Assembly: GCA_031555335.1 (NCBI GenBank)
Contig: JAVBUN010000096.1
Location: 2,893-66,892, forward strand
Direction: 5' to 3'
Length of the DNA stretch: 64,000 bases
Source of the DNA: Microbacterium sp.
GTDB taxonomy: Bacteria > Actinomycetota > Actinomycetes > Actinomycetales > Microbacteriaceae
A program made the translations under genes and the position numbers. The first letter of the stretch is position 1. The number at the start of each line of letters is the position of its first letter. Positions 18,267 to 41,243 of this stretch are shown piece by piece. Below the pieces are notes generated by a model. The model had not been told where the DNA came from. It was given only the letters and a program-made list of their open reading frames with translations, and ran no database searches.

Positions 18267-19271
18267 TCAGCGATCCAGCAACCGGCGCGGCTGCTCGACG
18301 ACCATGTCGTGCAGCCGCGCCGTCGAGACACCCGCCGCCGCCAAGAGGGGGAGGACGTGACCGAGCACGTGCCCGTAACCGGGTCCGCCATGATGCACGA
18401 GCTGCGCCTTGGTCCAGAGGGACCCGCCCAGGACGTGCCGAGAACTCGGGTGGTCCGCGGCGAATTCCACGAAGAACGCGAGCCGTTCGTCGTCCGAAGG
18501 GTTGCTCACGCGGCCGAGATGCACGGCCTCCGTCCCGAAGCACATCTCGACCACGGCGCCGGCGCCGGTGAGGTCCGCCCAGTACGGGCCGTCCATGAAC
18601 TCGTCGCCGTTGGTGAAGACGATCCGCTGCGGCGGGAGTCCCTCATCCGTCATGAGCCGGATGACCGCGAGACCGTCCCGGGCATCGGGATCGAGGCGGA
18701 CCGAGACGGCGGCACCCGTCCGCACGGCGGCACGCGCTGCGGCACGGAGCATCCCCCGCTCGGGCTCCGGCACACCGGCCGTGGTCCCCATGATGCCGAG
18801 CATCCCGGCCCGGTAGTCGGTGCCGGGGATCGCGACGGCGAGCGCGTCGTGCAGGTGCCGTTCGAGTCCTGCCTCATCCAGCTCCGCCACCCAGGCCGGC
18901 AGCGTGGAGCGGATGTAGGCGCCGTAGGCGACGACGACCTGCACCCCGGACGCGCGCGCGATCTCCGGGAGCCCGGCGTGGTCGGGGCCGAGGCCCCACG
19001 ACGTGCACTCGACGACCGAGCGCTGTCCGTCGGCGCGGACCCGGGCGAGCTCCTGCGCTGCCAGCACCGGGTCGTCGAGTCGCAGGTTGTCGGCGAGCGC
19101 GAGCATGTTCTCGGAGAGGTAGGCGACGGTCTCGGGCGACACCCGGTCCCCCGCGGGCGCCGGCTGCGCTCCCGGCCGCTGCAGCCGGCTCGCGTCGGCC
19201 AGCAGGTGGTCGTGCATCGAGGTCGCGCCGAGTTCGTCCGCCCGGATCGCCCCGTGCACCGTCTCGATCAC
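18267..19271 (-). CDS. Phosphotriesterase-family protein (metal site degenerate)
   Basis: 'IETVHG.I...LG.TSMHDHL' PTE start; other ligands replaced (GIMG, VSVR, FTNGD, GGSLW). Confidence 0.8.
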   Translation of the reverse strand: MIETVHGAIRADELGATSMHDHLLADASRLQRPGAQPAPAGDRVSPETVAYLSENMLALADNLRLDDPVLAAQELARVRADGQRSVVECTSWGLGPDHAGLPEIARASGVQVVVAYGAYIRSTLPAWVAELDEAGLERHLHDALAVAIPGTDYRAGMLGIMGTTAGVPEPERGMLRAAARAAVRTGAAVSVRLDPDARDGLAVIRLMTDEGLPPQRIVFTNGDEFMDGPYWADLTGAGAVVEMCFGTEAVHLGRVSNPSDDERLAFFVEFAADHPSSRHVLGGSLWTKAQLVHHGGPGYGHVLGHVLPLLAAAGVSTARLHDMVVEQPRRLLDR

Positions 19272-19313
19272 CGCGTCCTCCGTGTCCGCATCCGTGTCGC
19301 CGGAATGGCTCTT

Positions 19314-19346
19314 GCGGGATCCATTCTGACATGTTTAGGATCCAAT
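19314..19346. promoter_or_regulatory. Paired GntR (VanO-like) operator A
   Basis: GGATCC cores at 19317 and 19338 (21-bp spacing). Confidence 0.75.
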
Positions 19347-19347
19347 C

Positions 19348-19707
19348 ATGACCACGATCTTCCGTCCCCTCGATGTCGCCGTCGCCGACCTCGACGCCAA
19401 GCCGCTCGCCCTCCCGAGCGCCCAGCCCCTCTCCGGCGAGATCGAGGTGCGATCGCGCGTCGAGTTCGCCAATGAGGGTCGCACGATCATCTCGGGCATC
19501 TGGGAGAGCGACCCCGGCACGTCCCGCTGGGAGTTCACCGGCCGGGGCGAGATCGTGCACATCCTCGCCGGCGTCCTCACCGTCCAGGAGGACGGCGCAG
19601 AGCCGGAGACCCTGACCGCGGGAAGCGCGGCCGTGTTCCCCATCGGCTGGTGCGGGACGTGGACCGTCGAGGAGCCCGTGCGGAAGCTCTACGTCGTCTA
19701 CAAGTGA
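19348..19707 (+). CDS. Cupin domain protein (DUF861/EutQ-like), probably leaderless
   Basis: 'GIWESDPG', 'E..HIL.G', 'FP.GW.GTW.V...VRK.YV'. Confidence 0.88.
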   Translation: MTTIFRPLDVAVADLDAKPLALPSAQPLSGEIEVRSRVEFANEGRTIISGIWESDPGTSRWEFTGRGEIVHILAGVLTVQEDGAEPETLTAGSAAVFPIGWCGTWTVEEPVRKLYVVYK

Positions 19708-19743
19708 GCCCGGATCCGGTGCGCGTGCGCCCGGATCCGACCC

Positions 19744-20157
19744 TCACCAGCCCCGGGTCCGCTTCGCCGGCAGCAGGTCGGCGACGCGGACCCTCAGCGT
19801 GTCCTCGTCGCGCGTGATCCACACCCCCGCGTCCGGCCAGTAGTCCGAGAGCAACTCGGCGCACACCCCGCACGGCTCGATGACGTGCGTCGTCCCGCCG
19901 GGACGCCGGAGCACGCTGACCGCACTCACCACGTCGGCGGGGACGCCGTGGATCGCGGCGTGCTCGATGACCTTGCCCGCGGCGACGCCCTCCGCGCACA
20001 CCGCGCTGCGGCGAGCGGAGCCGTCGACGTGGACGCCGAGGACGACGGCGCCGTCGGCCGTCCGCATCGCCGCGACCACCTCGTGCCGCCCCTGGACGTA
20101 CACGGTCTCGAGCAGCGAGAGCGCGGCGGACATCAGTTCGGCGTCGGCATCGGACAT
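19744..20157 (-). CDS. Cytidine/blasticidin-S deaminase-like Zn deaminase
   Basis: 'VCAEGVA' and 'PCGVCAELL' motifs; 137 aa. Confidence 0.85.
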   Translation of the reverse strand: MSDADAELMSAALSLLETVYVQGRHEVVAAMRTADGAVVLGVHVDGSARRSAVCAEGVAAGKVIEHAAIHGVPADVVSAVSVLRRPGGTTHVIEPCGVCAELLSDYWPDAGVWITRDEDTLRVRVADLLPAKRTRGW

Positions 20158-20183: not shown

Positions 20184-20951
20184 TCATGCGGCGGTGATCC
20201 CGAGGATGCGGGCGTAGTTGCCGCCCTCCACGAGCGCGCGGTCGGCGGCGTCCGGGATCGCCTTCGCGATCTTCATGCGCTCGAGGTCGAAGTCCGAGCC
20301 CGGCCACTCCGATCCCAGCAGGATCTTCTCGGGTCCGAGGCGGGCGTACGCCCGCTTCACGTCCGCCATCAGGGTCGCGGAGGTCTCCAGGTATACGTGC
20401 GGCTGGCGCTCGGCGACGATGATCGCCTCCGGGACGTTCCACACCGCACCCATGTGCGCGATGATCGTCGGCACGTCGGGGTGCCCCTTGGCGATCTCCT
20501 CGATCGCGAGCGGCGCGCAGAACGCGTCGTCGAGCGCGTTGATGAGCACCGTCATCCCGTGCTCCGCGCAGGCGCGGAAGACCGGGTCCAGGAGCCCGTG
20601 ATCGGCCACGTGGTACCCGTGCATGCTCGGGTGCAGCTTCAGCCCCCGGATCCCGGCGGCCGCCATCCGATGCACCTCGTCGACGGCGTCGTCGGCCTGC
20701 GGCATGACCTGACCGAAGCCGATGAAACGGTTCGGGTACGCGTCCTGCAGTCCGATGATGAAGTCGTTCTCGATGCGCTGGGCGAGCGAGCAGATCATCG
20801 CCATGTCGACGCCGGCGGCGTCCATACGGTCGAGGATCCGCCGCGGGTCGAAGGGCGTGTAGGCCGGGGGCGCCTCGCCCGGACGCACGCCGGTGAGATA
20901 GTCGGATCGTCCGCGCACGTCCTGCGTCGTGTTGTAGGCGTCGAGGATCAT
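20184..20951 (-). CDS. Amidohydrolase_2 family protein (metal ligands degenerate)
   Basis: 'GLKLHP', 'IIAHMG', 'VYLETS', 'LGSEWP'; N-terminal 'DAYNT' instead of DxHxH. Confidence 0.8.
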   Translation of the reverse strand: MILDAYNTTQDVRGRSDYLTGVRPGEAPPAYTPFDPRRILDRMDAAGVDMAMICSLAQRIENDFIIGLQDAYPNRFIGFGQVMPQADDAVDEVHRMAAAGIRGLKLHPSMHGYHVADHGLLDPVFRACAEHGMTVLINALDDAFCAPLAIEEIAKGHPDVPTIIAHMGAVWNVPEAIIVAERQPHVYLETSATLMADVKRAYARLGPEKILLGSEWPGSDFDLERMKIAKAIPDAADRALVEGGNYARILGITAA

Positions 20952-21024: not shown

Positions 21025-21025
21025 C

Positions 21026-22142: not shown

Positions 22143-23054
22143 TCAGGCCAGACGCAGCATCCGCGCGGCGTTCTCGCCGAGCAGGGCGTCGACCTCACCC
22201 CGGCCGAAGCCCGGGAGGGACTCCACGATCTCCGCCGTGACCGCCGGGGTGTACCAGGGAAAGTCCGATCCGGTGACGACCCGCTCCACGCCGACCCCTC
22301 GGATGAGCTCCACGACGTCGGTCGCGGTGGGTCCGGCCGAGGCGCCGATCCAGATGACGATCTCGGACAGATCGAACATCAGCTGGGGGTACGCCTCGGC
22401 GAGCGCGAGCGTGGACCGCCACGATCCACCCCCGAGGTGCGCCAGGACGAGCTGCAGGCCGGGGCGCCGAGCGGCGAGCGGGGCGAACCGTTCCGGCTCG
22501 GAGTAGCCGATCCGTCGTGAGTCCGGCCCGGAGTGGAAGACGATCGGCACCCCGGCCGCCTCGCAGGCGTCGTAGACGCCCTCCATGCCGGGATCGTCGA
22601 CATGCGTGCGGATGCCGATCGGATGGATCTTCAGGCCCCGTGCACCCCAGTCGGCGAAGGCCTCGGTGAGGTGCGCACGTGCATCGTCCGAGGTCATCAC
22701 GGCGGGGTTCGCGGTCACGAACGGAAGCAGCTCCGGATGCGGCGCCGCCATCTCGCACACCCACCGGTTGTAGGCGACGAGGTCGTCGCGGTACTGGCCG
22801 TACGCGGGCTCGGCCGGCCAGTGCCCGCCGGACTGCGGCGCGTCCGGATATCCCGGCACCTCGTAGCTGCCGAGCACGGTCGCATGGTCGAAGCCGGCGG
22901 CGCGAAGCGCAGCGAGCCCCTCGTCGACCGCGCCGCCGACGCCTGCGAGGGGGACGTCGGCCATCTCGCCGTACTCGACGATCGGGAACGTGTCGATCTC
23001 GTACCGGCCCTGCGCGGGATCGGCATAGAGATGCATGTGGGTGTCGATCCTCAT
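22143..23054 (-). CDS. Amidohydrolase_2 family protein (intact metal site)
   Basis: 'IDTHMH', 'GLKIHP', 'VFHSG', 'LAHLG', 'GSDFP', 'GENAAR'. Confidence 0.88.
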   Translation of the reverse strand: MRIDTHMHLYADPAQGRYEIDTFPIVEYGEMADVPLAGVGGAVDEGLAALRAAGFDHATVLGSYEVPGYPDAPQSGGHWPAEPAYGQYRDDLVAYNRWVCEMAAPHPELLPFVTANPAVMTSDDARAHLTEAFADWGARGLKIHPIGIRTHVDDPGMEGVYDACEAAGVPIVFHSGPDSRRIGYSEPERFAPLAARRPGLQLVLAHLGGGSWRSTLALAEAYPQLMFDLSEIVIWIGASAGPTATDVVELIRGVGVERVVTGSDFPWYTPAVTAEIVESLPGFGRGEVDALLGENAARMLRLA

Positions 23055-25399: not shown

Positions 25400-26455
25400 T
25401 CAGGCCGCGACGAGCACCGGCTCGCGCACGACGGGCGGGGCGATGACGTGCACGCGCTCGGGCGCCGCACAGGCCACCCGCACGCGCGAGCCGACGACGA
25501 GCGTCGAGGCATCGATCGAGGTCGGGAGCGAGCAGATCACCTTGCGTCCGCCGTCGGTGGCGAGTTCGAGCCGGAAACGCGTGCCCTGGAAGCTCAGCAG
25601 TCGCACGACGCCGTCGATGGACCAGGCCGGCGTCGCCTCGCTCAGCGGGACGACGACGAGGTCCTCGGGCCGCAGCACGGCGGTGCCCTCGGATCCCTCC
25701 GCGTCGTCGCAGATCCGTCCGTCGCGGGTCGGGAAGAGGTTCGCCTCCCCCAGGAAGCTCGCCACGTACTCGTCGGCCGGACGGCGGTAGAGGTCTTCCG
25801 GTGAGGCGACCTGCACGAGGACGCCGTCGCGCATGATCGCCACGCGGTCGGACATCGTCATGGCCTCGGTCTGGTCGTGCGTCACCGACAGCGTCGTGAT
25901 GCCGACCTTCCGCTGGATGCGCGTGATCTCGACCTGCATCTGCTCGCGCAGCTGCTTGTCGAGGGCGGCCATCGGCTCGTCGAGGAGCAGGATGCCGGGG
26001 TTGGCCGCGATCGCACGGGCGAGCGCGACCCGCTGCCGTTGCCCACCGGACAGCGATGCCGGCGACCGGTCCGCCATCCCGGGCATCTGCACGAGACGGA
26101 GCATCTCGTCGGCGACGGCGCGGCGCTCCTTTGCGGGACGACGGGCCGCGAGCAGCGGGAAGGAGACGTTCTCCCCGATCGTCATGTGCGGGAAGAGCGC
26201 GTAGGACTGGAACACGACGCCGACGTTCCGCTTCTGCGGCGGGCGGCGAACGACGTCGACCCCGTCGAACAGCACGTGGCCGCTGTCGGCCGCGAGCAGG
26301 CCCGCGACGACGTTGAGCAGGGTCGACTTCCCGCTGCCGCTCGCGCCGAGCAGGGTGACGAACTCCCCCGGCTGCACGTCGAGCGACACGCCCTTCAGGA
26401 CATGGTTGTGGCCGAGGGTGACATTGACGTCGGAGATCGAGAGGGCGACGGTCAT
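25400..26455 (-). CDS. ABC ATPase, PotA-like
   Basis: 'GASGSGKST', 'VFQSYALFPHM', 'LSGGQRQR', 'LLLDEP'. Confidence 0.92.
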   Translation of the reverse strand: MTVALSISDVNVTLGHNHVLKGVSLDVQPGEFVTLLGASGSGKSTLLNVVAGLLAADSGHVLFDGVDVVRRPPQKRNVGVVFQSYALFPHMTIGENVSFPLLAARRPAKERRAVADEMLRLVQMPGMADRSPASLSGGQRQRVALARAIAANPGILLLDEPMAALDKQLREQMQVEITRIQRKVGITTLSVTHDQTEAMTMSDRVAIMRDGVLVQVASPEDLYRRPADEYVASFLGEANLFPTRDGRICDDAEGSEGTAVLRPEDLVVVPLSEATPAWSIDGVVRLLSFQGTRFRLELATDGGRKVICSLPTSIDASTLVVGSRVRVACAAPERVHVIAPPVVREPVLVAA

Positions 26456-27309
26456 TCGACGACTCCTTCCAGGACGGGGGCGGATGGGCGACGGGTGCCG
26501 CCGCGACGGCGGCGGATCGCGTTGGAGAGCGGGAGGATCGCGAGCAGCAGGATGGCCAGCAGCGACACGAGCGTCGAGGCGGCGGTGAGCTCGGGCGAGA
26601 ACGCCTCCTGTGAGGCGTTCAGCATGCGAAGCGGCAGTGTCTGCATCCCGATCGGAAGGAGGAAGACCGCGAGGACGACCTCGTCGAAGACGATCACGAA
26701 CGCGAAGAGCGCACCGGAGAGCACATAGGGCAGGAGCGCCGGAAGCTCGATCTTCCACAGCACGAGCGGCCACCTCGCCCCGAGCGTGCTCGCCGCGGGG
26801 CGCAGCGCCGGGTCGAGCCGCGCGATGCCTCCCGAGACCAGGACGAACACGTACGGCATCGCGACCAGGGCGTGACCGACGATCAGGGAGACGAGGGTCC
26901 CGCGAAGGAAGCCGAGATTCATGTTCACGCCGTAGAGGCCGAGCGCGTACGCGATCGGGGGCAGCGCGATCGGCACGATGAAGGCGGTCCGGATCCAGCG
27001 CTGCGCCGTGCGGCTGCGCACCCGGGTGAGGCCGATCGCGCCGGCGGCACCGAGCGTCGTCGCGATGATGGTCGACAGCGCCGAGGTCCACAGCGACAGC
27101 CCGAACGACGACATCCACTGCTTGTCACCGAGCACTTCGCCGTACCACTGCAGCGAAAAGCCCTCGGGCGGGAAGAGGATGAACGATCCCGCCGTCCACG
27201 ACGTCGAGACGAGGATGAGGAACGGGACGATGAGCAGGAGGCTCGCGAGCACCGCAACCAGCAGAATGGGCGCGCGATACCAACCGAGAGTACGGCCGAC
27301 GGTGGTCAT
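26452..27309 (-). CDS. ABC permease, PotC-like
   Basis: 'PPEGFSLQWY', 'AASTLGA', 'FDEVV', 'TLP'. Confidence 0.9.
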   Translation of the reverse strand: MTTVGRTLGWYRAPILLVAVLASLLLIVPFLILVSTSWTAGSFILFPPEGFSLQWYGEVLGDKQWMSSFGLSLWTSALSTIIATTLGAAGAIGLTRVRSRTAQRWIRTAFIVPIALPPIAYALGLYGVNMNLGFLRGTLVSLIVGHALVAMPYVFVLVSGGIARLDPALRPAASTLGARWPLVLWKIELPALLPYVLSGALFAFVIVFDEVVLAVFLLPIGMQTLPLRMLNASQEAFSPELTAASTLVSLLAILLLAILPLSNAIRRRRGGTRRPSAPVLEGVVE

Positions 27310-27316
27310 GGTCGCG

Positions 27317-28195
27317 TCATCCCCACTTTTCACTGACGTTGAACAGGCGATCGGCCACGAGATAGACGAGCATCGTGCCGGCGACCAGCAGGATGCTCAT
27401 CGCGGCGCCGAGGTCGGGCCGGTTCGCCTGACTCATCTGCGAGTTGATGAGACCGGACACCGTGAGGTTGCTGGGGCCACCGAGCAGGAGCGGCGTCACG
27501 TAGAACCCGAGCGACATGATGAACACGAGCACTCCACCGCTGATCACCGCTGGGACGATCTGCGGCCAGGTCACCGAGCGAAAGGTGAGCAGCGGCCCGG
27601 CACCGAAGATCGTGGCGGCCTTCAGCTGCTCGGAGTCGATCGCCTGCAGCGCGCTCATGACCGGCAGCACCGCGAAGGGCAGCATCACGGCCACCATCGC
27701 GGGATACATTCCGAACGTGGTCTGATACAGCTCGATCGGCTCCCCGGCGAGACCGAACAGCCCCAGGAACCAGTAGATGGCGCCCTTGGGCAGCTCGAGC
27801 AGCATCCAGCCGAAGGAACGGACCATGATCGACGTCCAGAGCGAGAGGATGAGCGCCGCCAGCAGGCACAGGCGCAGCCAGGTGGGCGAGGCGACGATCG
27901 CCAGCGCGTACGCGGCCCCCAGCACCATGGTGAGGATCATGACGATGAACGCCATGACCACCGTGCGCACGAGCGAAGCGATGAACGCGGGGACGACGAA
28001 CATGCCGGGGTACGCGGCTCCCCCGCCCTCGAGCGACTGCGTGATGAGGGCGATCATCGGCAGGCCCAGGGCGACGGCGAAGAAGATCACCGGCGGCCAC
28101 AGCAGCCACCGCCGCTCGGCCGCGCTCACCCCGAGGGTGCGCGGCACGCGGGTGGCACGCGCGCGGCGTGGCACGGCCATTGACGTGGTGCTCAT
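27317..28195 (-). CDS. ABC permease, PotB-like
   Basis: 'WTSIMVRSFGW', 'LPF.VLP', 'GFYVTPLLLGG'. Confidence 0.9.
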   Translation of the reverse strand: MSTTSMAVPRRARATRVPRTLGVSAAERRWLLWPPVIFFAVALGLPMIALITQSLEGGGAAYPGMFVVPAFIASLVRTVVMAFIVMILTMVLGAAYALAIVASPTWLRLCLLAALILSLWTSIMVRSFGWMLLELPKGAIYWFLGLFGLAGEPIELYQTTFGMYPAMVAVMLPFAVLPVMSALQAIDSEQLKAATIFGAGPLLTFRSVTWPQIVPAVISGGVLVFIMSLGFYVTPLLLGGPSNLTVSGLINSQMSQANRPDLGAAMSILLVAGTMLVYLVADRLFNVSEKWG

Positions 28196-28249
28196 GGCGT
28201 CATGCTCCCTGATCAAGATTGCGGTCGCGTTTCCGGCCCGCCTCGGTAA

Positions 28250-28312
28250 CTTGGATCCAATGTATCGCGCTATGGATCCGAAAACGTTTCTCTTGTGTTT
28301 CCGCGGAGTTAC
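28250..28312. promoter_or_regulatory. Paired GntR operator D plus GlnR-like boxes
   Basis: GGATCC cores at 28253 and 28274; gtttc-n6-gtttc-n6-gttac at 28286-28312. Confidence 0.72.
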
Positions 28313-28340
28313 GGCACTCAGGCGCACCCCTCCCGTACGA

Positions 28341-28380
28341 GAGAGCGGGGCCGTGGACGTCCGTCCACGACCCCGCTCTC
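28341..28380. terminator. Hairpin after the SBP gene
   Basis: gagagcggggccgtggacg / cgtccacgaccccgctctc inverted repeat. Confidence 0.65.
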
Positions 28381-28391
28381 GTCGGGGATGA

Positions 28392-29474
28392 TCAGCCGGC
28401 CAGCCAGTCGGTGTACCAGTTGAGCATCGCCTCACGGTTCTCGGAACGCCACTTCGAATCGGCCATCACGATCGTGGTGTGGCTCGGCGCATTGGGCAGG
28501 TTCTCCTGGACGTCCTCCGGGATGAACTCGTACGCGTCGGGGTTTCCGGGGCCGTAGTTGGTCCGCTCGGCGAACGCCGCCTGCAGCTCGGGGTCGTGGA
28601 AGACGCCGGTCAGCGCCATGATGTTGTCGACATCCGGCGCCCCCTTCGGGATCGAGATCACGTTCGGCGAGACGACCGCCTGGTCCCACGACACGGTGAC
28701 GTCCTGGCCGGCGTTGCGCAGTGCCGCGAACTGACCGCTGGGGCCGGCCGCGACGGCGGCCGTACCGGAGACCAGCAGCTGCTGGATCTCCGCGTAGGAC
28801 TTGAAGAACACCAGGTCGGGACGCAGCTCGTCGAGCTTGGCCGAGCAGCGGTCGAAGTCGAGCGGGTAGAGGTCCTCCGGCTCGACGCCGTCCGCCAGGA
28901 GCGCGATCTCGCAGGAGCTGTCGTATCCGGCGGGCTCGCCCGACCACGCACGCTTGCCGGGGAACTTCTTCGTGTCGAAGAAGTCCGCCCACGTCTGGGG
29001 TCCGCCGTCCGGGAACGTCTCGGTGAGATAGCCCTGCGCGGCACCGACGAAGAAGGTGCCGAAGGCGTAGGGGCGGGCGTCCTCGGGAAGCTCCTGGTCC
29101 TGGTACTCCTCGGGGACCTCGAGCAGGTTGTCCTGGTGCAGGTACAGCTCCTCGAGCCCCAGGTGCATCGCGTCATAGTCCCCCGGCTCGCCGTCCAGCA
29201 TCGCCGACTGCATCGCCTCGTTGATGACGACCGAGGTGACCTCCACGCCGGTGTCCTCGGTGAACGGCCCGAAGAAGATCTCCTGGCGGGCCTCGTTCGT
29301 CGGTCCGCCGTAGTCGGCCCAGACGATCTGGCCGCTCAGCGCGGCGGCGGTGTCGTCGGTGGTCGGCTCGGCGGCGTCGCCGCCGGAACTGGCGCAGCCG
29401 GCCAGCAGCGCGACCGAGGCGCTGAGCGCAAGCCCGGAGACCGCGAGCCTCCGGATGCTGATTTTCGCGTGCAT
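28392..29474 (-). CDS. ABC substrate-binding lipoprotein, PotD/PotF-like
   Basis: Lipobox 'LAGC', 'WADYGG', 'PQTWADFFD..KFPGKR', 'LYPLD'. Confidence 0.88.
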   Translation of the reverse strand: MHAKISIRRLAVSGLALSASVALLAGCASSGGDAAEPTTDDTAAALSGQIVWADYGGPTNEARQEIFFGPFTEDTGVEVTSVVINEAMQSAMLDGEPGDYDAMHLGLEELYLHQDNLLEVPEEYQDQELPEDARPYAFGTFFVGAAQGYLTETFPDGGPQTWADFFDTKKFPGKRAWSGEPAGYDSSCEIALLADGVEPEDLYPLDFDRCSAKLDELRPDLVFFKSYAEIQQLLVSGTAAVAAGPSGQFAALRNAGQDVTVSWDQAVVSPNVISIPKGAPDVDNIMALTGVFHDPELQAAFAERTNYGPGNPDAYEFIPEDVQENLPNAPSHTTIVMADSKWRSENREAMLNWYTDWLAG

Positions 29475-29554: not shown

Positions 29555-29639
29555 CTTGGATCCAATCTTCCTCCTAGTGGATCCCTCGCACAATCTCAGG
29601 CCGTTTCCACCTCGTGAAGATCTGTTTCGACGGCGTTAC
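29555..29639. promoter_or_regulatory. Paired GntR operator E plus GlnR-like boxes
   Basis: GGATCC cores at 29558 and 29579; gtttc-n6-gtgaa-n5-gtttc-n6-gttac at 29603-29639. Confidence 0.72.
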
Positions 29640-30283
29640 GGGGACGACTCGCCCGCGTCGTCGTCCATCCGCCAGACCGCGACCAGCCGCGGCGCGTGCC
29701 GCAGCGCGGCCGGGTCGGCGGGTGCCGCCGCATCCGCGACGATGTAGGTCTCCTCGACGGTACCGGCGAACGGATGGACCGGCACCGTCTCGTCGATCAA
29801 CGACCGGCAGCCCCACAGGAGAGGCCCGGGACCGGCGAGCACCGGGGCGCCGAGCACGACCGCCGCAGACACCGGGTCACCCTCGTCGACTCGCGCCTCG
29901 ATCGAGAGCCGGTCTCCCGGGCGACCGGGGATCCTTGCCACCAGCCACACCGCGGATGCCGCAGGAACGGGCGAACCGACCGCGATGCCGACCGGCCCCG
30001 ACGAGGTGCCGACCCCCACGGCCGCGCGCCCGTCCGCCCCGAGGCCGACCCACCATCCGACGGCGTCCTGCGCGTGCGAGAACACGCCCTGCGGGACGCC
30101 GACGTCGCCGGCCGGCGCCCGGAACCGCACGGCCACGGTGACGCCGGCCTCGTCGATCCGCAACGCCCCGCGCAGGCGACGCACGTGCACCGGTGCGCCG
30201 GCCGAGTCGGCGGGGCCGCTCGCGTCGGCGACGTCCACCGTCTCGGGATGCACCCGCGCCGGGAACGACGCGTCGTGGCTCAT
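29636..30283 (-). CDS. Hypothetical protein, possible LamG/ConA-like jelly-roll domain
   Basis: ATG overlaps amidase stop; beta-rich pattern 'GVFSH..GWWVGLGADG..PLLWG..PFAGTVEE..LVAVW'. Confidence 0.55.
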   Translation of the reverse strand: MSHDASFPARVHPETVDVADASGPADSAGAPVHVRRLRGALRIDEAGVTVAVRFRAPAGDVGVPQGVFSHAQDAVGWWVGLGADGRAAVGVGTSSGPVGIAVGSPVPAASAVWLVARIPGRPGDRLSIEARVDEGDPVSAAVVLGAPVLAGPGPLLWGCRSLIDETVPVHPFAGTVEETYIVADAAAPADPAALRHAPRLVAVWRMDDDAGESSP

Positions 30284-31713
30284 CGCGCCGCGGCGACGGT
30301 CGGCGCGGGATGCCGGGCGGTGTGGCCGAGCACCGCCTCGATGGCCGCCGTGTGAGCGAGTAGGTCCCGCTCGCCGCGGTTGCGCCCCACCGCCTGCAAC
30401 CCGACCGGCAGCCCGTCGGAGAACCCGGCGGGGGTCACGACGACCGGGTGCGCGGTCGCGGTGATGCGGTTCGCCAGCATCTGCCACCGGAAGTAGCGGT
30501 CGTATTCGACGTCGCCCACCCGTGCGACCCACTCGTCTTCTGCGGGCGGCGCGACCACGGGGGTGGCCGGGAAGACGAGCAGGTCGACGTCGTCGAACGC
30601 GCGCTCGGTGCGCCGGTAGATCTGGGTGCGCACGGCCAGCGCGTCGGCGAGCTCTGCCGCCGACACCCGCTCGCCCTGCCGGACGTTCCGCACCATGTCG
30701 GGGCGCATGAGCTCCGGATGGGCGGCGACCTCGTCGCGATAGGAGGCGTAGAAGTTGAACATCTCGATGGTCTCCCACGCCTGTTCGGCGTCGGCGAGCG
30801 GCAGGTCGAGATCGACGATCGTGAACCCGGCGGCCTCGAGGATGCGACGAGCATCGGCGTGGACGCGGGCGACCTCCGCGGAGATCGGCACGCCGTCGGC
30901 GTCGGCGCTCCATCCGATCCGCACGTGGCCCGGGTCGGACGCCACGAGGCCGAGGAACTGCGCAGGGTCCTCCGCGATCGACATCGGGGCCATCGGATCG
31001 GCCCCGGACATCGCGGCGAGGGCGAGCGCGGCATCCTGCGAGGTGCGCGCCATGGGCCCCAGCACGCCGTGCGCGGTCCACGCGTTACCGAGGCGCCCGC
31101 TCGCCACGCGTCCCGGCGTGGGCCGGACGCCCACGACGTTGCAGAAGGCCGCCGGGTAGCGCAGGCTTCCGCCGCTGTCCGACCCGTCCGCGAAGGGCAG
31201 CATGCCCGATGCGACGGCGGCCGCAGCTCCCCCGCTCGATCCGCCGGCATGCCGGGAGGAGTCGTACGGATTGCGGCAGACGCCGTGGAGCGGATTGAAC
31301 GTCAGTGTGCCGAGGCCGCCCTCGGGCGTCGCGGTCTTGGCGATCACCAGCGCCCCGGCCCGGCGGATCCGGCCGACGACCATGGCGTCGGAGGCGGCGG
31401 GCTCGGCGTCCGCGTAGATCGCCGAGCCGTGGGTCGTGGGCAGGCCCGCGACGTCCATGAGGTCCTTGACGCCGGTGGGGAGCCCATGGAGGATGCCGAC
31501 CTCGTCGCCGCGCGCGACCGCACGGTCGGCGTCGCGGGCGAGCGCGATCGCGGCGGATTCGGGGATCATCGCGACGATCGCGCCGATGGCGCCGTCGACC
31601 TCCTCGATGCGTCCCAGGTGGGCGCGCATGACCTCCTCGGCCGAGAAATCGCGGGCGCGGATGCCGGCGGCGAGGTCGGCGGCGCTCTTCCAGTACAGGG
31701 CGGTGTCGGTCAT
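30280..31713 (-). CDS. Amidase (amidase signature family)
   Basis: 'GVKDL', 'GGSSGG', 'GSDSGGSLRYPA'. Confidence 0.92.
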   Translation of the reverse strand: MTDTALYWKSAADLAAGIRARDFSAEEVMRAHLGRIEEVDGAIGAIVAMIPESAAIALARDADRAVARGDEVGILHGLPTGVKDLMDVAGLPTTHGSAIYADAEPAASDAMVVGRIRRAGALVIAKTATPEGGLGTLTFNPLHGVCRNPYDSSRHAGGSSGGAAAAVASGMLPFADGSDSGGSLRYPAAFCNVVGVRPTPGRVASGRLGNAWTAHGVLGPMARTSQDAALALAAMSGADPMAPMSIAEDPAQFLGLVASDPGHVRIGWSADADGVPISAEVARVHADARRILEAAGFTIVDLDLPLADAEQAWETIEMFNFYASYRDEVAAHPELMRPDMVRNVRQGERVSAAELADALAVRTQIYRRTERAFDDVDLLVFPATPVVAPPAEDEWVARVGDVEYDRYFRWQMLANRITATAHPVVVTPAGFSDGLPVGLQAVGRNRGERDLLAHTAAIEAVLGHTARHPAPTVAAAR

Positions 31714-32753
31714 CGGGGTTCCTTCTCCAGGGGTGCGGCGTCCGGGGTGGGACGGTCGAGCAGGGCGGCCGGGCGGGCGACGAGCATGTCGTCGATCCGG
31801 GTCCGTGCGACCCCGGCCCGCTCGAGCGCGGGGACGATTCGTCGCACGACGTGCCCGTATCCCATGCCGCCCCAGCGGGAGAGCTGGCCCTTGGTCCAGA
31901 CCGAGCAGCTCAGCGTCACCGCGGCATCCGGCCGGTCCGCGAGCAGGTCGACGAGGAACGCGAGCCGGTCGTCGTCGTTCGCGTCGCGCGCCCGGTCGCC
32001 GAAATGGTGCTCGCTGCCGAAGGCGAACTCCACGACGGCGCCGCTGTCCGAGATCTCGCGGACATAGACGGGGTCGAGCACCTTGTCGATGTTGCAGAAC
32101 AGGATCCGGGAGGCGGGCAGGCCGGTGGCGGTCAGGATCTCGACCACCTCCGGGCCGCGTCGGGCGGCGGCGTCGAGTCGGACCGTGACGGCGCTTCCCG
32201 CCTCGGCGGCGGCCCGGCCGGCCGCGCGGAGGGCTCGCATCTCCGCCCCGGTGATCTGGGCGCTCGTCCCCATGAGTCCGAGCACGCCGGCCCGGAAGTC
32301 GGTCCCGGGGATGGCCTCGAGGAGCGCGGTGCGGAACAGATCCTCCATCCGCGCCTCCGTCTGCTGCGCCCACCACATCGGCAGGGTCTTCTCGATGTAG
32401 CTCCCGTAGGCGGCCACGATATGCACCCCGGCCGCGCGCGAGACCGCGGGCAGATCGGCGGATCGAGGGCCCATCCCCCACCCGGTCGCCTCGACGATGG
32501 TCCCAAGTCCGGCGGAGGCGGCCGCGCCCAGCTCGGCGACGGCGAGCGCGGGGTCGTCCAGGGTGAGATTGTCGGCGAGCGACAGCCAGCTCCAGCGGAG
32601 GTCCCCCAGCACCTCGGGCCGCATCGGCCCCTCGAGCACGCCTCCCTCACGGGTCAGGCGAGTGAGCGTCCGCGAGTCGGCGAGCACGTGCTCGTTGGTC
32701 GACACGACGCCGAGCTCCGCCGCGGGGAGCCGGCCGAGGACGGTCTCGATCAT
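31710..32753 (-). CDS. Phosphotriesterase-family protein (metal site degenerate)
   Basis: 'IETVLG....LG..STNEHVL'; GLMG, VTVR, FCNID, SCSVW substitutions. Confidence 0.8.
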   Translation of the reverse strand: MIETVLGRLPAAELGVVSTNEHVLADSRTLTRLTREGGVLEGPMRPEVLGDLRWSWLSLADNLTLDDPALAVAELGAAASAGLGTIVEATGWGMGPRSADLPAVSRAAGVHIVAAYGSYIEKTLPMWWAQQTEARMEDLFRTALLEAIPGTDFRAGVLGLMGTSAQITGAEMRALRAAGRAAAEAGSAVTVRLDAAARRGPEVVEILTATGLPASRILFCNIDKVLDPVYVREISDSGAVVEFAFGSEHHFGDRARDANDDDRLAFLVDLLADRPDAAVTLSCSVWTKGQLSRWGGMGYGHVVRRIVPALERAGVARTRIDDMLVARPAALLDRPTPDAAPLEKEPR

Positions 32754-34153
32754 GCCTCGCCCTCCGTCGCCGGAATCGCGGAGGCCTCCGGGATGACGTG
32801 CACGGTGCGCCCTCCGACATCGGTGCGCAGGACGGTCAGCGTCCGCAGGGCGTCCACGGGGACCGCGGTGGGATCCGCCGACCACAGCGCCCAGTCGGCG
32901 AGCATCCCCGCACGCAGCATCCCCCGTTCGTGCTCGGCCAGACTCGCGTACGCGGCGCCCGTCGTGTACGCGGCGAGCGCCTCCGTCACCGTGACGGCCT
33001 CGGTGGGCGACAGCGGGTGCTCCTCGCCTGCGACGCGACGCGTGACGACCTGCCAGACGAGGTGGCGCGGGTCGAAGGAGAAGAACGGCCCGTCGGAGCC
33101 GAAGGCGACCACGACCCCCGCGTCGAGCCAGCTCCGCACGGGGTTCGCGCGTTCCGCCCGGTCGGCGATCTTCGCGCGGAGCCCCCGGCCGTTGTGCCAG
33201 ATCAGCGACGGCTGGAGCGAGGCGATCACGCCCGTGGCGGCCGCGAGCGCCATCGTCTCCGCGCTCGGTTCGAGGTAGGCGTGGATCAGCTGATGCCGGC
33301 GGTCGGCGACGATCCCGGGATGCTGCGCCTCGGCGTTCGCGTAGGCCCGCGCGACGAACGCCGCGGCGCCCCCGCCGACCGCGTGGGCGCCGACCCCCCA
33401 GCCGTGTGCCGCACACCAGTCGACGAGGCGCTGGAAGTCGGCCTCGGAGATCCGTTGCACGCCGGCGAATCCGCTGTCGTCCCACGGCTGCTCGAGGAGG
33501 GCCTCCCCCTTGAGCGCCTCGCCGTCCGCGTACACCTTGATCGGGCCGATCTTCAGCTGCGCGTCGCCGAAACCCGTGGACAGACCGATCCCGTCGAGAT
33601 GCGTGATCACCGCGTCGAGGTCGGGCGTCCGCGCGCTGCCCGGCTCGAGATAGGGCATGGCCACCGTGCGCATGGTCAGCAGTCCGCGGCGGTGCGCCTC
33701 CTGGTATCCCCGCAGCTCCTCCACCATCACCGCGGGGTCGACGATCCCGGTGATGCCGAGGGAGTGCAGCAGCGGCTGAACGCGCTCGAGGGCTCGGACG
33801 CGGTCCTCGAACGGCGGGTCCTCGGGCCCGTCGTCATCGAAGCTCTCGCGCATGGCGACGATGTACTCCTCCACGTCGGCCCCGGCGCCGAGGTAGTCGA
33901 GCGCCTTCAGCCCGGCGCGCTGCATGTGCAGGTGCGCGTCGATCAGCCCCGGCAGCACGACACCGGGGAGAGTCTCCTCCACGGCTCCCGGCACCGCCGC
34001 ACGCACCGCGTCGAGCGATCCGACGGCCACGATGCGATCGCCCTGCACCGCGAACGCCTCGGCCCGCGGACACGCGGGGTCCATCGTGACGACGGCCGCC
34101 CGGTAGAGGACGGGGGCCGGGCGCGTGACGGGGGCGGGGGGTGGGGTCGCCAT
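32750..34153 (-). CDS. Amidohydrolase_3 (YtcJ/NfdA-like), shortened
   Basis: 'PGLIDAHLH', 'IK.YADG', 'AHAVG', 'LIHA', 'GSDGP', 'AYT.GAA'. Confidence 0.85.
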   Translation of the reverse strand: MATPPPAPVTRPAPVLYRAAVVTMDPACPRAEAFAVQGDRIVAVGSLDAVRAAVPGAVEETLPGVVLPGLIDAHLHMQRAGLKALDYLGAGADVEEYIVAMRESFDDDGPEDPPFEDRVRALERVQPLLHSLGITGIVDPAVMVEELRGYQEAHRRGLLTMRTVAMPYLEPGSARTPDLDAVITHLDGIGLSTGFGDAQLKIGPIKVYADGEALKGEALLEQPWDDSGFAGVQRISEADFQRLVDWCAAHGWGVGAHAVGGGAAAFVARAYANAEAQHPGIVADRRHQLIHAYLEPSAETMALAAATGVIASLQPSLIWHNGRGLRAKIADRAERANPVRSWLDAGVVVAFGSDGPFFSFDPRHLVWQVVTRRVAGEEHPLSPTEAVTVTEALAAYTTGAAYASLAEHERGMLRAGMLADWALWSADPTAVPVDALRTLTVLRTDVGGRTVHVIPEASAIPATEGEA

Positions 34154-34204: not shown

Positions 34205-35386
34205 TCAGACGGACAGGAGTGCGCGGGGGATGCGGGACAGGGCCGAGACCGCACCGTCCTCGACGAGGAGCGTGTCGATGGCCGCGGCCTCGAATCCCTC
34301 CCCGCGGTGGAACAGCACGGTCTCGAAGTTCGACGTGTAGCCGTCGCCGAGCGGCGTCGGGCGGGGCCCGTCGTCCGCGAGATACGTGTGCCCCACCCAG
34401 CTGGGCGGGAAGGCGAGGCCGAAGCCGTAACCGCCGACCCACCAGATGTTCTCGGCCGGCACGCGATCGCGGAGCACCCGCTCGGCGGACGCCATCGCCG
34501 CCGCGGGGCTCTGCCCCACCACGGCCGTGCGGCAGAACTCCGCCAGGCAGTCGGCCCCGGCGCGCAGATAGTCGTCGGCGGTCTGATTCCAGCCGTCGAT
34601 CACGAACGCCCGGCTCAGATTGACGTGATAGCGGTCGACGACGGCGCAGGCGTCGATGGAGACGACCTCGCCGCGCTCGATCCGCCGGTCCGACGGGAAA
34701 GCGTGCACGTCGGCCCAGGCGGTCGGCCCCGACGAGACGAGCGCATGCTGCGCGGGCACCTCGGAGCCGCGTTCGGCGAGCAGGGAGGTGATGAGGGCGG
34801 CGACCTCGAGCTCGGTGAGCCCCGGCCGCAGTCGCGTGCGGAGCTCCTCGAAGGCGTCGTCGAGCATCGCGCCGGCCCGCCGCATCTTCCGACGCTCGGC
34901 CGGCGATTTCCGCACGCGGAGATCGTCGACCACGTAGTCCCCCGCGACGACCTCGGCGCCAGCCGCGGCGAGGCCGGCGGCGATGTCGCGGAGAACCCCC
35001 GCGACCGGGTTGGGCGCGAACCACTCGATGCCGACCGCACCTTCCGCCCACCCGCGCTCGCGCAGTGCGGAGACGAGCTCCTCGGGCGAGGTGCCGTAGT
35101 CGACGAGAACGAGCTCGTCGTGGATGGCGTTCATCGGCACGTAGTCCGCATGACGCGACCAGTCCACGAAGACGAGCTCGCTCTGGCGGGCGTGCACGAC
35201 GACGCCGATCGGCAACCGCGGGGCGTACCAGCTGGCGACGTATCCGGTGAGGTAGCAGACGTTGACGGGCGACGTCACGACGAGCACGTCGATCCCGGCG
35301 TCCGCCATGGCGGCGCGCAGGGCGGTATGGCGGGCCTCGTACTCGCTCACCGCGAACGGCAGGGCGGGCGGGATGCTGCGTGCCAC
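34205..35386 (-). CDS. M24 family hydrolase, ectoine hydrolase (DoeA/EutD)/creatinase-like
   Basis: 'EY.AR', 'N..YLTGY', 'R..KS..E', 'RYH..LSR', 'GYGFGLAFPPSW'. Confidence 0.8.
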   Translation of the reverse strand: MARSIPPALPFAVSEYEARHTALRAAMADAGIDVLVVTSPVNVCYLTGYVASWYAPRLPIGVVVHARQSELVFVDWSRHADYVPMNAIHDELVLVDYGTSPEELVSALRERGWAEGAVGIEWFAPNPVAGVLRDIAAGLAAAGAEVVAGDYVVDDLRVRKSPAERRKMRRAGAMLDDAFEELRTRLRPGLTELEVAALITSLLAERGSEVPAQHALVSSGPTAWADVHAFPSDRRIERGEVVSIDACAVVDRYHVNLSRAFVIDGWNQTADDYLRAGADCLAEFCRTAVVGQSPAAAMASAERVLRDRVPAENIWWVGGYGFGLAFPPSWVGHTYLADDGPRPTPLGDGYTSNFETVLFHRGEGFEAAAIDTLLVEDGAVSALSRIPRALLSV

Positions 35387-35428: not shown

Positions 35429-35480
35429 TTGACCTCGCGGAAACATGATGGATCCTATCATGAGAGAAATGGATCCATTT
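35429..35480. promoter_or_regulatory. Paired GntR operator F plus weak GlnR-like box
   Basis: GGATCC cores at 35450 and 35471; ttgac-n6-gaaac at 35429-35444. Confidence 0.72.
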
Positions 35481-38063: not shown

Positions 38064-39589
38064 GCCGCGTCCTCCAGGATCATCCGGGCCACCTTCTCGC
38101 CGACGACGATGGCGGGCATCGCCGTCGTCGCACGCGGCACCGTTGGCATGATGGAGCAGTCCGCGACGCGGAGCCCCTCGACGCCGTGCACCCGTCCGCG
38201 CGCGTCGACGACCGCGAGCGGATCCGCGCTCGTCCCCATCCGGCACGTGCCGACCGGATGCCAGTAGTTGTCCGGACGCCGATAGAGGTGGGCGGCCAGC
38301 GCGGCCCGCTCGAACGTCCCGGGGCCGGGATGGATCTCCCGGCCCACCAGGGGGGCGAGCGCGGGCGACGCGGCGAGCTCGCGGAGGATCTCGGCACCGT
38401 CGACGAGCATCGCGACGTCGATCCCCTCCGGGTCGGCGAGGAAGCGGTGGTCGATCCACGGCTTCGCCTCGGCGTCGGTGCTGCGGATGCGGACGAAGCC
38501 GCGCGAGCGCGGCTGGAGCGCTGACGTGCCGATGCTCCACCGCTTGTCGTCGCCGCGGTGGGTCGGGCTGTACGGCAGGAAGTGCAGGTCGAACGCCTCG
38601 GTCTCGTGCCGCGAGGCGGCCTTGCCCATCGCCTGCTCGTCGGGCGCCCAGCCGGTGCGGCGGGCCTCGTCCATCGCGGCCGTCATCCGGTCCGATCCCT
38701 GCCAGCTCATGAGGAGGAACGGCTGGTCGTGGAGGTTCTCGCCGACGCCGGGGAGGTGCGTGACGACCGTGATGTCGAGCGGTGCGAGCTGTGCCGCGGG
38801 CCCGATTCCCGAGCGCAGCAGCACGGTCGGAGAGTTGTAGGCTCCGCCGCAGAGCACGACGGTCCCCGCCCAGACGACGATGCTCGCGCCGTCGTGGCGC
38901 ACCACGACCCCGGTCGCGACGCCCCCCTCGATCACGACGCGCTCGACGAGCGCGTCGCCGACGATGCGGAGATTCGGCAGCGCGCGCACGGGATCGAGGT
39001 AGGCGAAGGACGCGTTCACCCGGACGCCGTCCTGGATATTCATCGCCTCGGGGGCGAACCCCGCCGCCTCGTCGAGATCGTTGAGGCTGGCGAGCGTGGG
39101 CATGCCCACCGACGGGGCGGCCTCGTACCAGGCGTGCTGCCATGGGGTGAGTTCATCCGGTGTGAACTGCCGCACCCGCATCCGCCGCATCCCCTCCTCG
39201 AAGAGGGGCACGAGGTCATCGGCGGCCCATCCCTCGAGCCCGGCCTCCGCCCAGGCGTCGTAGTCCCGGCGGTGACCCCACGTCTGGGTGCAGCCGTTGA
39301 CGTCCGAGGAGCCGCCGATCGCCCGGGCCCGCTCGAACCCGACCGACCACGGGTAGGTGTCCCCCGAGTCGTAGCCCCAGTCATGGGAGCGCCCGAGGCG
39401 GGTGGCATCGACGAAATCAGCGGGCCAGCGCGCGTCGCCCTCCGGACCGAAGTCGGGTCCGGCCTCGAGGACGAGGACCTCGTGCCCGGCCTCCGCGAGA
39501 CGGGCGGCCACCACGCTGCCCGACGTCCCACCCCCGACCACCACGTACTCCGCCCGGGTGGGCATCTCGCGGGGGGACGTCGACGTCAT
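38060..39589 (-). CDS. GMC family oxidoreductase (choline-dehydrogenase-like)
   Basis: 'VGGGTSG', 'IGGSS.VNG', 'LLRSGIG', 'GVGENLHD', 'HPVGTCRMG'. Confidence 0.92.
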   Translation of the reverse strand: MTSTSPREMPTRAEYVVVGGGTSGSVVAARLAEAGHEVLVLEAGPDFGPEGDARWPADFVDATRLGRSHDWGYDSGDTYPWSVGFERARAIGGSSDVNGCTQTWGHRRDYDAWAEAGLEGWAADDLVPLFEEGMRRMRVRQFTPDELTPWQHAWYEAAPSVGMPTLASLNDLDEAAGFAPEAMNIQDGVRVNASFAYLDPVRALPNLRIVGDALVERVVIEGGVATGVVVRHDGASIVVWAGTVVLCGGAYNSPTVLLRSGIGPAAQLAPLDITVVTHLPGVGENLHDQPFLLMSWQGSDRMTAAMDEARRTGWAPDEQAMGKAASRHETEAFDLHFLPYSPTHRGDDKRWSIGTSALQPRSRGFVRIRSTDAEAKPWIDHRFLADPEGIDVAMLVDGAEILRELAASPALAPLVGREIHPGPGTFERAALAAHLYRRPDNYWHPVGTCRMGTSADPLAVVDARGRVHGVEGLRVADCSIMPTVPRATTAMPAIVVGEKVARMILEDAA

Positions 39590-40212
39590 GCGCTTGCCCG
39601 CTGCTCGAGCCACGCGGCGACGTCGTCGGACACCACGAGCGCGTCGCGCTGGAGGTACTGCACGGCTTCGAGCGCGTGGTCGTGGGCACGACGCGTCGAG
39701 CCGCCCACGCAGTCGGTGATCACGCGCACCCGGTAGTCGTGTTGGTGGGCGTCGACGGCGGTGTAGTGGATGCACACGTCGGTCAGCCCGCCCACGAGCA
39801 GCAGGGTCTCCGCCTTGTACGCCTTCAGGACGATCTCGAGCTCCGTGCCGAAGAACGCCGAGTACCGCCGCTTCCGGATGACGAACTCCTCCGGGCGCGG
39901 ATCCAGCCAGGAAGCCAGCTCCGTGCCGTCGTCGCCCTCGATGCAGTGCGGCCCCTCGTCGCCGTCGAGTTCGCGTCCGATGTCGACGAGCGAGCGCTTG
40001 TGCACCTCCTGGATGAACACGACGGGCACGTCCGCCGCACGGGCGAGGTCGATGAGCCGTCGCACGCGCGGAGCGCGCTCCGCCTTGCCGCCCATGACGG
40101 GGATGCCGCCCTCGGCGGCCGGCGCGGTGCCGGAGCCGCCCTGGATGTCGACGACGACGAGAACGGGATTGCCGACGATGGCGACGCGGTCGGTGGTGTC
40201 GGGCGTGGTCAT
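39586..40212 (-). CDS. Isochorismatase/cysteine hydrolase family protein
   Basis: D ('VVDIQ'), K ('KRRYSAFFGT'), C ('TDVC') triad. Confidence 0.9.
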   Translation of the reverse strand: MTTPDTTDRVAIVGNPVLVVVDIQGGSGTAPAAEGGIPVMGGKAERAPRVRRLIDLARAADVPVVFIQEVHKRSLVDIGRELDGDEGPHCIEGDDGTELASWLDPRPEEFVIRKRRYSAFFGTELEIVLKAYKAETLLLVGGLTDVCIHYTAVDAHQHDYRVRVITDCVGGSTRRAHDHALEAVQYLQRDALVVSDDVAAWLEQRASA

Positions 40213-40223
40213 GGGAACTCCGT

Positions 40224-41243
40224 TCAGGGCCGGTCGAGAAGTCGACGCGGGGTGTGGATGAGGATGGCATCGGCGGCGGCCTGGTCCCCCGACGCGAGCC
40301 GCGAGATGGCCGGGCCGACCCTGCGGAACAGGTGGTCGTAGCCGTTGCCGCCGTTGCGGTGCAGGTTCGCCTGGCTCCACACGTCCGCACCCACGATGAG
40401 CTGGTCCCGGTACCCCTCCGAGAGGAGCCACTCGACCATCTCGAGCCGCTCACCGTCGGTCGGGTTCCGGAGGGCGGGCGAGCCGTAGAAGAAGTCCGAA
40501 CCCCACGTGTCGTAGGCGAGCACCGCCCCGGCCTGGGCGATTTCCCGGTGGTAGCCGGGGTCCCAGAGCTCGTCGAGGTGCCCGATGACGATGCGCTCGG
40601 CGGGCATCCCCTCCTCGATCAGCACCTCGAGGACGCTGGTCCCGCCGGTCCCGCGGAAGGACTGGTGCGTGTAGACGGCGGCGCCGGTCTCGACGCCGGC
40701 GCGGGCGGCGGCGCGGAGGACGCGCCATTCGGCGTCGGTGATCGGCCAGCTCGTGCCGATCTCGCCCAGGATGGCGGGCAGGATGCCGGTGCCGTCGATC
40801 CCCTCGGTCAGCTGGGCGATGAGCATCTCGGTGAGCGTGTCGACGTCGGCCGTCCGCACCGTCTCGGTCATCGTCTCCTCGACGTAGAACCCCGCGCCGA
40901 CGCAGATGTTCACCCCGGAGCGACGCGAGATCTCCGGGAGCTCGGCGATGCGCCGGCCCATCCCCTCGAGCGTCAGCTCCACGACGGCAGAACCGCCCGC
41001 GGCACGCACCCAGGCGAGCTCCTCGGCGGCGACGACCGGATCGTGCAGCACGAGGTTGTCGGGGAGCGCGAGGAAGTTCCAGCGCAGGTAGGCCATCAGC
41101 TCGGGACCCATCGCCACGCCCTCCGGGGGCGCCTCGGTCTGGGGCTTCGCCCACAGGCTCAGATCGCTCAGCACGTGCTCGTGCATCGACGTGGGGCCGA
41201 GCTGGTCGGCCGGGATCGGGCCGAGCACGGTGTGGATGGGCAT
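40224..41243 (-). CDS. Phosphotriesterase-related hydrolase (intact site)
   Basis: 'MHEH', 'LGEIG', 'YTH', 'IGHLD', 'GAD'. Confidence 0.88.
   Translation of the reverse strand: MPIHTVLGPIPADQLGPTSMHEHVLSDLSLWAKPQTEAPPEGVAMGPELMAYLRWNFLALPDNLVLHDPVVAAEELAWVRAAGGSAVVELTLEGMGRRIAELPEISRRSGVNICVGAGFYVEETMTETVRTADVDTLTEMLIAQLTEGIDGTGILPAILGEIGTSWPITDAEWRVLRAAARAGVETGAAVYTHQSFRGTGGTSVLEVLIEEGMPAERIVIGHLDELWDPGYHREIAQAGAVLAYDTWGSDFFYGSPALRNPTDGERLEMVEWLLSEGYRDQLIVGADVWSQANLHRNGGNGYDHLFRRVGPAISRLASGDQAAADAILIHTPRRLLDRP

Follow-up and report, generated by a model that had tools for sequence, protein, structure and literature searches.

Whether a metalloenzyme scaffold whose metal ligands are gone turns into a catalyst that works without metal, into a protein that only binds, or into a partner subunit is the question raised by two genes of the phosphotriesterase (PTE) family, itself the textbook model for metal-dependent catalysis and enzyme evolution, that lie within a 64,000-nucleotide stretch of Microbacterium sp. 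DNA (positions 2,893 to 66,892 of contig JAVBUN010000096.1, GenBank assembly GCA_031555335.1; the whole stretch is hereafter called the window). These two genes, named A and B here, encode PTE-fold proteins belonging to a metal-free branch of the family and are accompanied by two canonical members, C and D. The window has a GC content of ~70% and belongs to a metagenome-assembled genome (2.69 Mb, 82% complete), all four of whose PF02126 genes are on the minus strand and fall inside the window, as listed below (the six ligand columns are the two residues of strand beta1, the bridging residue of beta4 and those of beta5, beta6 and beta8).

18267..19271, minus strand: gene A, PTE-fold protein without a metal site, 334 amino acids, A-type sub-clade, columns H,H,I,R,N,S
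31710..32753, minus strand: gene B, PTE-fold protein without a metal site, 347 amino acids, B-type sub-clade, columns N,H,L,R,N,S
40224..41243, minus strand: gene C, canonical Glu-bridged PTE-family protein, columns H,H,E,H,H,D, nearest to Rsp3690 (3k2g) and PTER
41268..42281, minus strand: gene D, canonical PTE-family protein, columns H,H,E,H,H,D, on a branch farther off than that of C

A preliminary description of the window, made from the letters and their open reading frames (ORFs), had called both A and B full length, and this holds after the start of B is moved to the ATG at 32753, as the ORF at 31710-33485 is over-extended judging by its GC at the three codon positions, by a GGAGG-type site and by the ATGA that the corrected gene shares with the gene before it. 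All four proteins score well above the PF02126 cut-off of 22.4 bits (A 117, B 114, C 201 and D 178), neither A nor B matches any other Pfam family, a DNA-binding or signalling domain being absent, and a protein-cluster comparison returned PF02126 clusters only. A and B share 47% identity with one another, and their nearest live paralog is ~40% identical.

Metal-ligand positions and fold

The ligand columns were read from a four-way alignment of A to D together with alignments to the solved structures 3k2g and 9efa. C and D proved to be intact (HEH, GEI, TH, GH-x-D and the terminal D), as had been proposed, and the motifs of A (HDH, GIMG, VR, TN and S) and of B (NEH, GLMG, VR, CN and S, including the change of HEH to NEH) bear out the losses that had been described. 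The beta1 HxH motif reads HDH in A and NEH in B, with the Asn present in five of the six B-type members, while R192 and N221 of A pair with His in both 3k2g and 9efa, and S284 takes the position of the beta8 Asp. An AlphaFold2 model of A (pLDDT 95.7, pTM 0.93) has a fold with a TM-score of 0.94 to 3k2g (sequence E-value 2e-38) and of 0.91-0.92 to PTER (9efa/9efb), and puts R192, N221 and S284 at the C-terminal ends of beta5, beta6 and beta8, i.e., at the true ligand positions. Shifted ligands were also considered; none lies near the site in this model, and the structure alignments confirm the equivalences, which indicates that the ligands are replaced and not displaced.

Rsp3690 of Rhodobacter sphaeroides (3k2g) and PTER, an N-acetyltaurine amidohydrolase (9efa/9efb), are the closest solved relatives of A, and they share with A and B the N-terminal insertion, the barrel and residues D26, N62, E74, Y119, D223, D260, R263 and K288; in both, however, the binuclear H,H,E,H,H,D site is complete, whereas A and B have I/L, R, N and S at four of its positions, B having N at a further one. 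By these alignments, the binuclear centre of PTE/PLL/PTER-type hydrolases appears to be replaced at four positions in A and at five in B, which makes the phosphotriesterase label that databases give to A/B-like proteins almost certainly wrong.

A metal-free clade and its sub-clades

The substitutions are not peculiar to the window. HHIRNS is found in 116 of the 120 homologs of A (50-91% identity; Microbacterium, Streptomyces, Jiangella, Micromonospora, Nocardioides and other genera), with the remainder differing only at the first or third column, and the 150 best 50%-identity representatives found with B comprise ~15 proteins with the Arg pattern and 131 with HHEHHD. A joint alignment separates 126 R-N-S sequences from 128 H-H-D ones, with almost nothing between, and a 107-sequence tree unites the proteins with the Arg in a single clade of 71 tips (support 1.0), the sister group of which is the PTER/Rsp3690-like branch that includes gene C. 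The beta4 residue is hydrophobic in 71 of the 71 clade members tabulated vs Glu in 36 of 36 canonical relatives. It and the beta5 Arg (100%) are the only replaced positions that are universal, so that the shared pattern, put forward initially as R/N/S, stands throughout the clade for the Arg and the loss of the beta4 ligand, but not for the Asn, which is Thr in one sub-clade, nor for the Ser, which is Gly or Ala in two. H20 and H22 are present in four of the five sub-clades, and H22, D26, E74, Y119, D223, D260, R263 and K288 (numbering of A) are kept from the canonical relatives.

The pattern seen in A and B is thus common by descent from one ancestor that had lost the metal site, and with a single clade having inherited it, the likeness of A and B is no coincidence that would need a test against chance. 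The metal-free branch itself is an old, well-conserved, actinobacterial one that extends across orders of Actinomycetota. Its five sub-clades differ both in their ligand columns and in their gene context (RidA, cgdA and the other neighbours named here are treated further below):

A-type, HH-I-R-N-S: transcribed divergently from a cupin gene, or located between RidA and cgdA
ALDH-adjacent, HH-L-R-T-S/A: immediately preceding an aldehyde dehydrogenase (ALDH) gene
B-type, NH-L-R-N-S: alongside Amidohydro_3 and amidase genes
ABC-adjacent, HH-(I/L/V)-R-N-S: closing the operon of a PotD-like ABC transporter
CDA-adjacent, HH-(M/V/L)-R-N-G: preceded by genes for a degenerate Amidohydro_2 protein and a CDA-like deaminase

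Pocket changes track this context across the sub-clades (Y116 to C/V, H98 to P/A, N221 to T, S284 to G/A), as would be expected of paralogs with different ligands. The clade is found in none of the seven other genomes sampled from the window's own genus and in 11 of the 201 sampled from the genus of Microbacterium sp. A204 (genome G401), a contig scan of genomes with A alone as the query returned one locus, and a class-wide set of 400 genomes yielded one further carrier, so the clade is rare there. A search of the literature on a metal-free or pseudo-enzyme phosphotriesterase branch, cog1735 and carboxyguanidine deiminase links returned nothing relevant, and a paper on riboflavin catabolism has no protein of this kind.

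Selection and a shared operator

That A and B form a selected subfamily and are not in decay, as the preliminary description had suggested, is borne out by the invariance of the substitutions in ~125 homologs down to ~40-50% identity (the Arg and the hydrophobic beta4 residue being universal, contrary to what a lack of conservation in homologs would give), by monophyly, by a ratio of nonsynonymous to synonymous substitution rates (dN/dS) like that of the neighbouring genes and by a conserved regulon. A comparison of the window with the syntenic island of another genome, G257, gives a dN/dS of 0.33 (A) and 0.27 (B), within the 0.14-0.36 spanned by 11 neighbouring genes. It is, accordingly, hardly credible that these are decaying pseudogenes retained by chance, an explanation for which the loss of the catalytic ligands, and nothing else, can be adduced, and which has to contend with open full-length frames, with a pattern that does not vary over ~125 homologs, with retention in several orders of Actinomycetota, with a dN/dS of 0.27-0.33 and with the conserved operator described below. 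A and B being functional, selected proteins is, by contrast, a well-supported conclusion from these comparisons.

The operator in question is a dual one, GGATCC-N15-GGATCC, which occurs 11 times in the window vs 0.77 expected (at 19317, 19712, 20995, 23595, 28253, 29558, 35450, 47651, 54961, 56552 and 56666). Three of the copies, and one gene, deserve to be listed here:

19317..19343, strand not assigned: dual operator, in the divergent promoter region between gene A and a cupin gene
35450..35476, strand not assigned: dual operator, upstream of the operon M24-Amidohydro_3-B-amidase
47651..47677, strand not assigned: dual operator, next to the gene of a GntR/FCD regulator and in front of the long operon that contains D and C
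47795..48514, plus strand: GntR/FCD-family regulator, candidate operator binder by position only

The 3' portion of the long operon reads ALDH-D-C-isochorismatase-GMC-amidase. With one operator type upstream of A, of the B operon and of the D-C operon, the co-regulation claimed earlier for A and B has support at the sequence level. At least nine other loci have the same operator ahead of metal-free PTE genes, at a distance of 20-60 bp, and in loci L001, L012 and L015 it has the same position upstream of A-type genes. It defines a regulon of ~40 kb, and its conservation extends to Microbacterium, to G257 and to many metagenome loci; the metal-free clade, in turn, marks a conserved, co-regulated actinobacterial island, presumably for nitrogen compounds, for which the operator offers an experimental handle on the inducer. 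One copy (19712-19738) sits between two convergent gene ends, which is odd for an operator.

A proposed role for the metal-free proteins

The description to which we lean, although we would put its chances at a little short of even, is that an A/B-like protein acts on its own in a pathway, makes use of its pocket and probably needs no metal. In the actinobacterial clade, an ancestral PTER/Rsp3690-like barrel gave up its binuclear metal centre once, with the bridging Glu becoming hydrophobic, the beta5 His an invariant Arg, the beta6 His an Asn, or in one sub-clade a Thr, and the beta8 Asp a Ser (Gly/Ala elsewhere), and with the beta1 HxH, D223, K288, Y119, D260 and R263 remaining. The guanidinium of the Arg would then fill the former metal site, and the old pocket, lined differently in each sub-clade, would hold a small molecule, an intermediate that is most likely anionic or carries a carbonyl group, and this would probably be converted without a metal. 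The protein would work alone within a co-regulated island that takes up and degrades nitrogen-rich compounds, with A and B each responsible for a different intermediate. A more specific form of this, namely, that the clade is a separate mechanistic subtype of the amidohydrolase superfamily, made up of PTE-fold enzymes with an Arg in place of the metal centre, which hydrolyse, decarboxylate or isomerise intermediates of the ureido, guanidino or N-acyl type and fall into five specificity sub-clades under one conserved actinobacterial regulon for a nitrogen-rich substrate, can be offered only tentatively. Ser284 was considered as a universal nucleophile and rejected, being Gly or Ala in two sub-clades.

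Conservation within the metal-free clade is focused on the pocket: the mean entropy is 0.82 at the C-terminal strand ends vs 1.41 elsewhere (p=4e-5), in a test for which the pocket was defined by topology, not by coordinates, and the sequences are not independent. The canonical clade has the same C-terminal-end bias, and the opposite face of the barrel has none.

Such a pocket would also suit a stand-alone ligand binder without catalysis, be it one that carries an intermediate, one that sequesters it or one that senses it and feeds back on the regulon or the transporter. This agrees with the clade having no invariant nucleophile or base set, with a large sub-clade closing an ABC-transporter operon and, by name only, with the nearest solved relative having first been called a binding protein. 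We nevertheless regard it as improbable: several paralogs per island with context-specific pockets are more enzyme-like, the PF02126 match stands alone with no DNA-binding or signalling domain beside it, and the HxH, D223 and K288 are still there.

Somewhat more doubtful still is a mononuclear metalloenzyme with a rebuilt site, in which the HxH and clade-specific residues (in A-type, H98, C244, E242 or D194) would hold a single metal. The retention of H20 and H22 in four of the five sub-clades fits this, as do H98 and C244, which are conserved in, and specific to, the A-type and ALDH-adjacent types; B-type proteins, however, have N20 and A244, ABC-adjacent ones are without H98, no candidate for a third ligand extends across the clade, and a cation would be repelled by the invariant Arg that stands where the metal was.

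Relation to the canonical genes and to known systems

The remaining alternative to a stand-alone protein, already raised in the preliminary description as a heteromer with C or D, is that A and/or B are inactive partners that stabilise or activate a live enzyme of the amidohydrolase superfamily: C/D in the case of A-type proteins, and the adjacent Amidohydro_3 or amidase in the case of B-type ones. The loss of four to five of the six metal ligands speaks for this; as a whole, we consider it possible but rather unlikely. Metal-free and canonical PTE genes are never adjacent and belong to different operons in the window, in G257, in G401 and in nine other genomes with both; A lies 21 kb and B 7.5 kb from C, and the spacing overall is 6-28 kb, or the genes are on other contigs. 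Five loci with 10-kb flanks contain no canonical PTE gene. In genome G522 (locus L103, C12:20000-39900), the order GS-ALDH-isochorismatase-GMC-...-Amidohydro_3-B-amidase is found with neither D nor C, and in genome G498, too, the D-C tandem is missing from between the ALDH and isochorismatase genes (locus L102, C117:24000-43900), with the B-type, Amidohydro_3 and amidase genes present, and the B-type gene is the sole PF02126 gene of that (fragmented) assembly. The direct neighbours vary by sub-clade as well (Amidohydro_3/amidase, ABC ATPase, CDA-like deaminase, ALDH, or cupin/cgdA), with no constant partner gene, and conservation is centred on the pocket face. For B-type proteins, which are kept without C/D and are encoded in separate operons, a dead partner dedicated to C/D is, from this gene distribution, disfavoured; for A-type ones, the proposal is weakened less.

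Several observations weigh against the stand-alone reading and, in part, speak for a partner subunit. All 11 genomes that carry an A-type gene have a C-type gene as well. Of the 11 carriers of a metal-free copy in the genus of G401, nine have an A-type gene, each with a C-type gene 6-28 kb off, and none of the remaining 190 genomes searched of that genus has a C-type gene. Inheritance of the island as a block would, however, explain this co-occurrence equally well, and it is no proof of contact. The start and the stop of B overlap the neighbouring Amidohydro_3 and amidase genes, to which B is thus coupled in translation; this makes a partnership with their proteins possible and also fits a subunit role. 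As for catalysis, no set of residues able to replace metal chemistry is invariant throughout the clade (the Ser gives way to Gly/Ala, and the first His to Asn in B-type proteins), and the above-mentioned limits of the entropy comparison belong here, too. The beta5 His-to-Arg change, moreover, is not confined to the clade. G401 has, at C1:448.5-454.2 kb (locus L104, C1:447500-455500), two tandem dead/live PTE pairs, the dead copies of which are ligand-less PF02126 proteins like A and B, one of them also with the beta5 Arg; they stand directly upstream of Lys-bridged HHKHHD copies and outside the 71-tip metal-free clade, so the metal site has been lost independently, at least twice. The recurrence of Arg in an unrelated dead copy that is in tandem with a live one suggests that the emptied site is preferentially filled by this residue, so that a catalytic role should be claimed with caution, and the Arg may serve as no more than a structural plug of the kind typical for copies that are dead.

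There is also a precedent in the superfamily for a ligand-less subunit that a live paralog needs, namely, 6,7-dihydroxylumazine isomerase (DHLI) of the lumazine pathway in Cupriavidus sp. LA-1, an Amidohydro_2 enzyme of alpha2beta2 composition with an essential ligand-less alpha subunit (PMC12391406). A and B resemble DHLI alpha in being superfamily members without the metal-binding His residues, and DHLI alpha is functional and needed for the catabolism of an N-heterocycle (PMC12391406). The DHLI subunit genes, however, are adjacent, their products are ~65% similar (PMC12391406) and the Pfam family is a different one, whereas the nearest live paralog of A and B is, as given above, ~40% identical, lies in another operon and is missing from some of the B-bearing genomes. 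Among the canonical genes themselves, the D-C tandem is repeated in G257, G401, G403 and G516.

Other families of the amidohydrolase superfamily offer further parallels. In the CRMP/DPYSL proteins and in the PyrC' subunit of the Pseudomonas ATCase, the barrel is kept as a non-catalytic partner, while LigI is a metal-independent hydrolase of the superfamily that keeps its His/Asp residues and binds no metal. A and B are unlike this LigI/cog3618 type in that their His/Asp set is replaced, not kept.

Gene content of the island

Genes of note around A and B are the following:

9027..15917, minus strand: cgdA-cgdB-urea/guanidine carboxylase-allophanate hydrolase module, within 10 kb of a metal-free PTE gene in the window, G257, L015, L030 and L036
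19348..19707, plus strand: Cupin_3 gene, divergent from A, a pairing that recurs in L001, L010, L012 and L015
19744..20187, minus strand: CDA-fold deaminase-like gene, CAE and PCGVC zinc/catalytic motifs kept, a recurrent upstream neighbour of metal-free PTE genes
20184..20951, minus strand: Amidohydro_2 paralog with degenerate ligands, the most conserved island gene (68-88% identity across loci, dN/dS 0.14)
25400..29474, minus strand: PotD-like ABC transporter (binding protein, two permeases, ATPase)
30280..31713, minus strand: amidase-signature gene, its start overlapping the B stop
32750..34153, minus strand: Amidohydro_3 gene, its stop overlapping the B start
34205..35386, minus strand: M24 creatinase/ectoine-hydrolase-like gene, heading the operon that contains B

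The island gene set is repeated in 80 metagenome loci and several Microbacterium genomes, and comprises the PotD-like, polyamine-type ABC transporter, MFS, RidA, the degenerate Amidohydro_2, the CDA-like deaminase, amidase, Amidohydro_3, ALDH, GMC oxidoreductase and isochorismatase genes and the guanidine/urea carboxylase module; a Rieske oxygenase is also contained in the island. The order Amidohydro_3-B-amidase is conserved in G257 and G522, the G257 island having a B-type gene in this arrangement and an A-type gene, followed by cgdA, cgdB and an allophanate-hydrolase-like gene, and a metal-free PTE gene comes directly after the ABC ATPase gene in 13 other loci. The NCBIfam/PDB matches of the Amidohydro_3, degenerate Amidohydro_2 and M24 neighbours are far under the family cut-offs, and when creatinine/creatine, guanidino-amines and pyrimidine/pterin-like rings were weighed as substrates from the neighbour matches, no choice was possible.

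An intact/degenerate pair is seen among the Amidohydro_2 genes of the window as well (22143-23054 and 20184-20951, not adjacent to each other), for which DHLI alpha/beta (PMC12391406) is a precedent of such a pair acting as one enzyme. Gene A and the convergent SSF transporter gene have 5 bp between their ends (18262-18266), which leaves no space for a terminator hairpin. In L010, a metagenome contig from a near-identical strain (98.9% identity over 8.9 kb), homology to the window is lost within the last third of gene A (L010:8500-10571 vs window 18267-18385), and the sequence continues into unrelated DNA without the SSF transporter, as if recombination had joined two sequences within the gene; the S284/K288 motif is unchanged. 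Finally, a 215-amino-acid ORF at 29636-30283, without a Pfam match, resembles only the N-terminal part of a 754-amino-acid protein of G257 that is N,N-dimethylformamidase-beta-like (DMFA2_C), and may be either a truncated remnant or a separately encoded domain.

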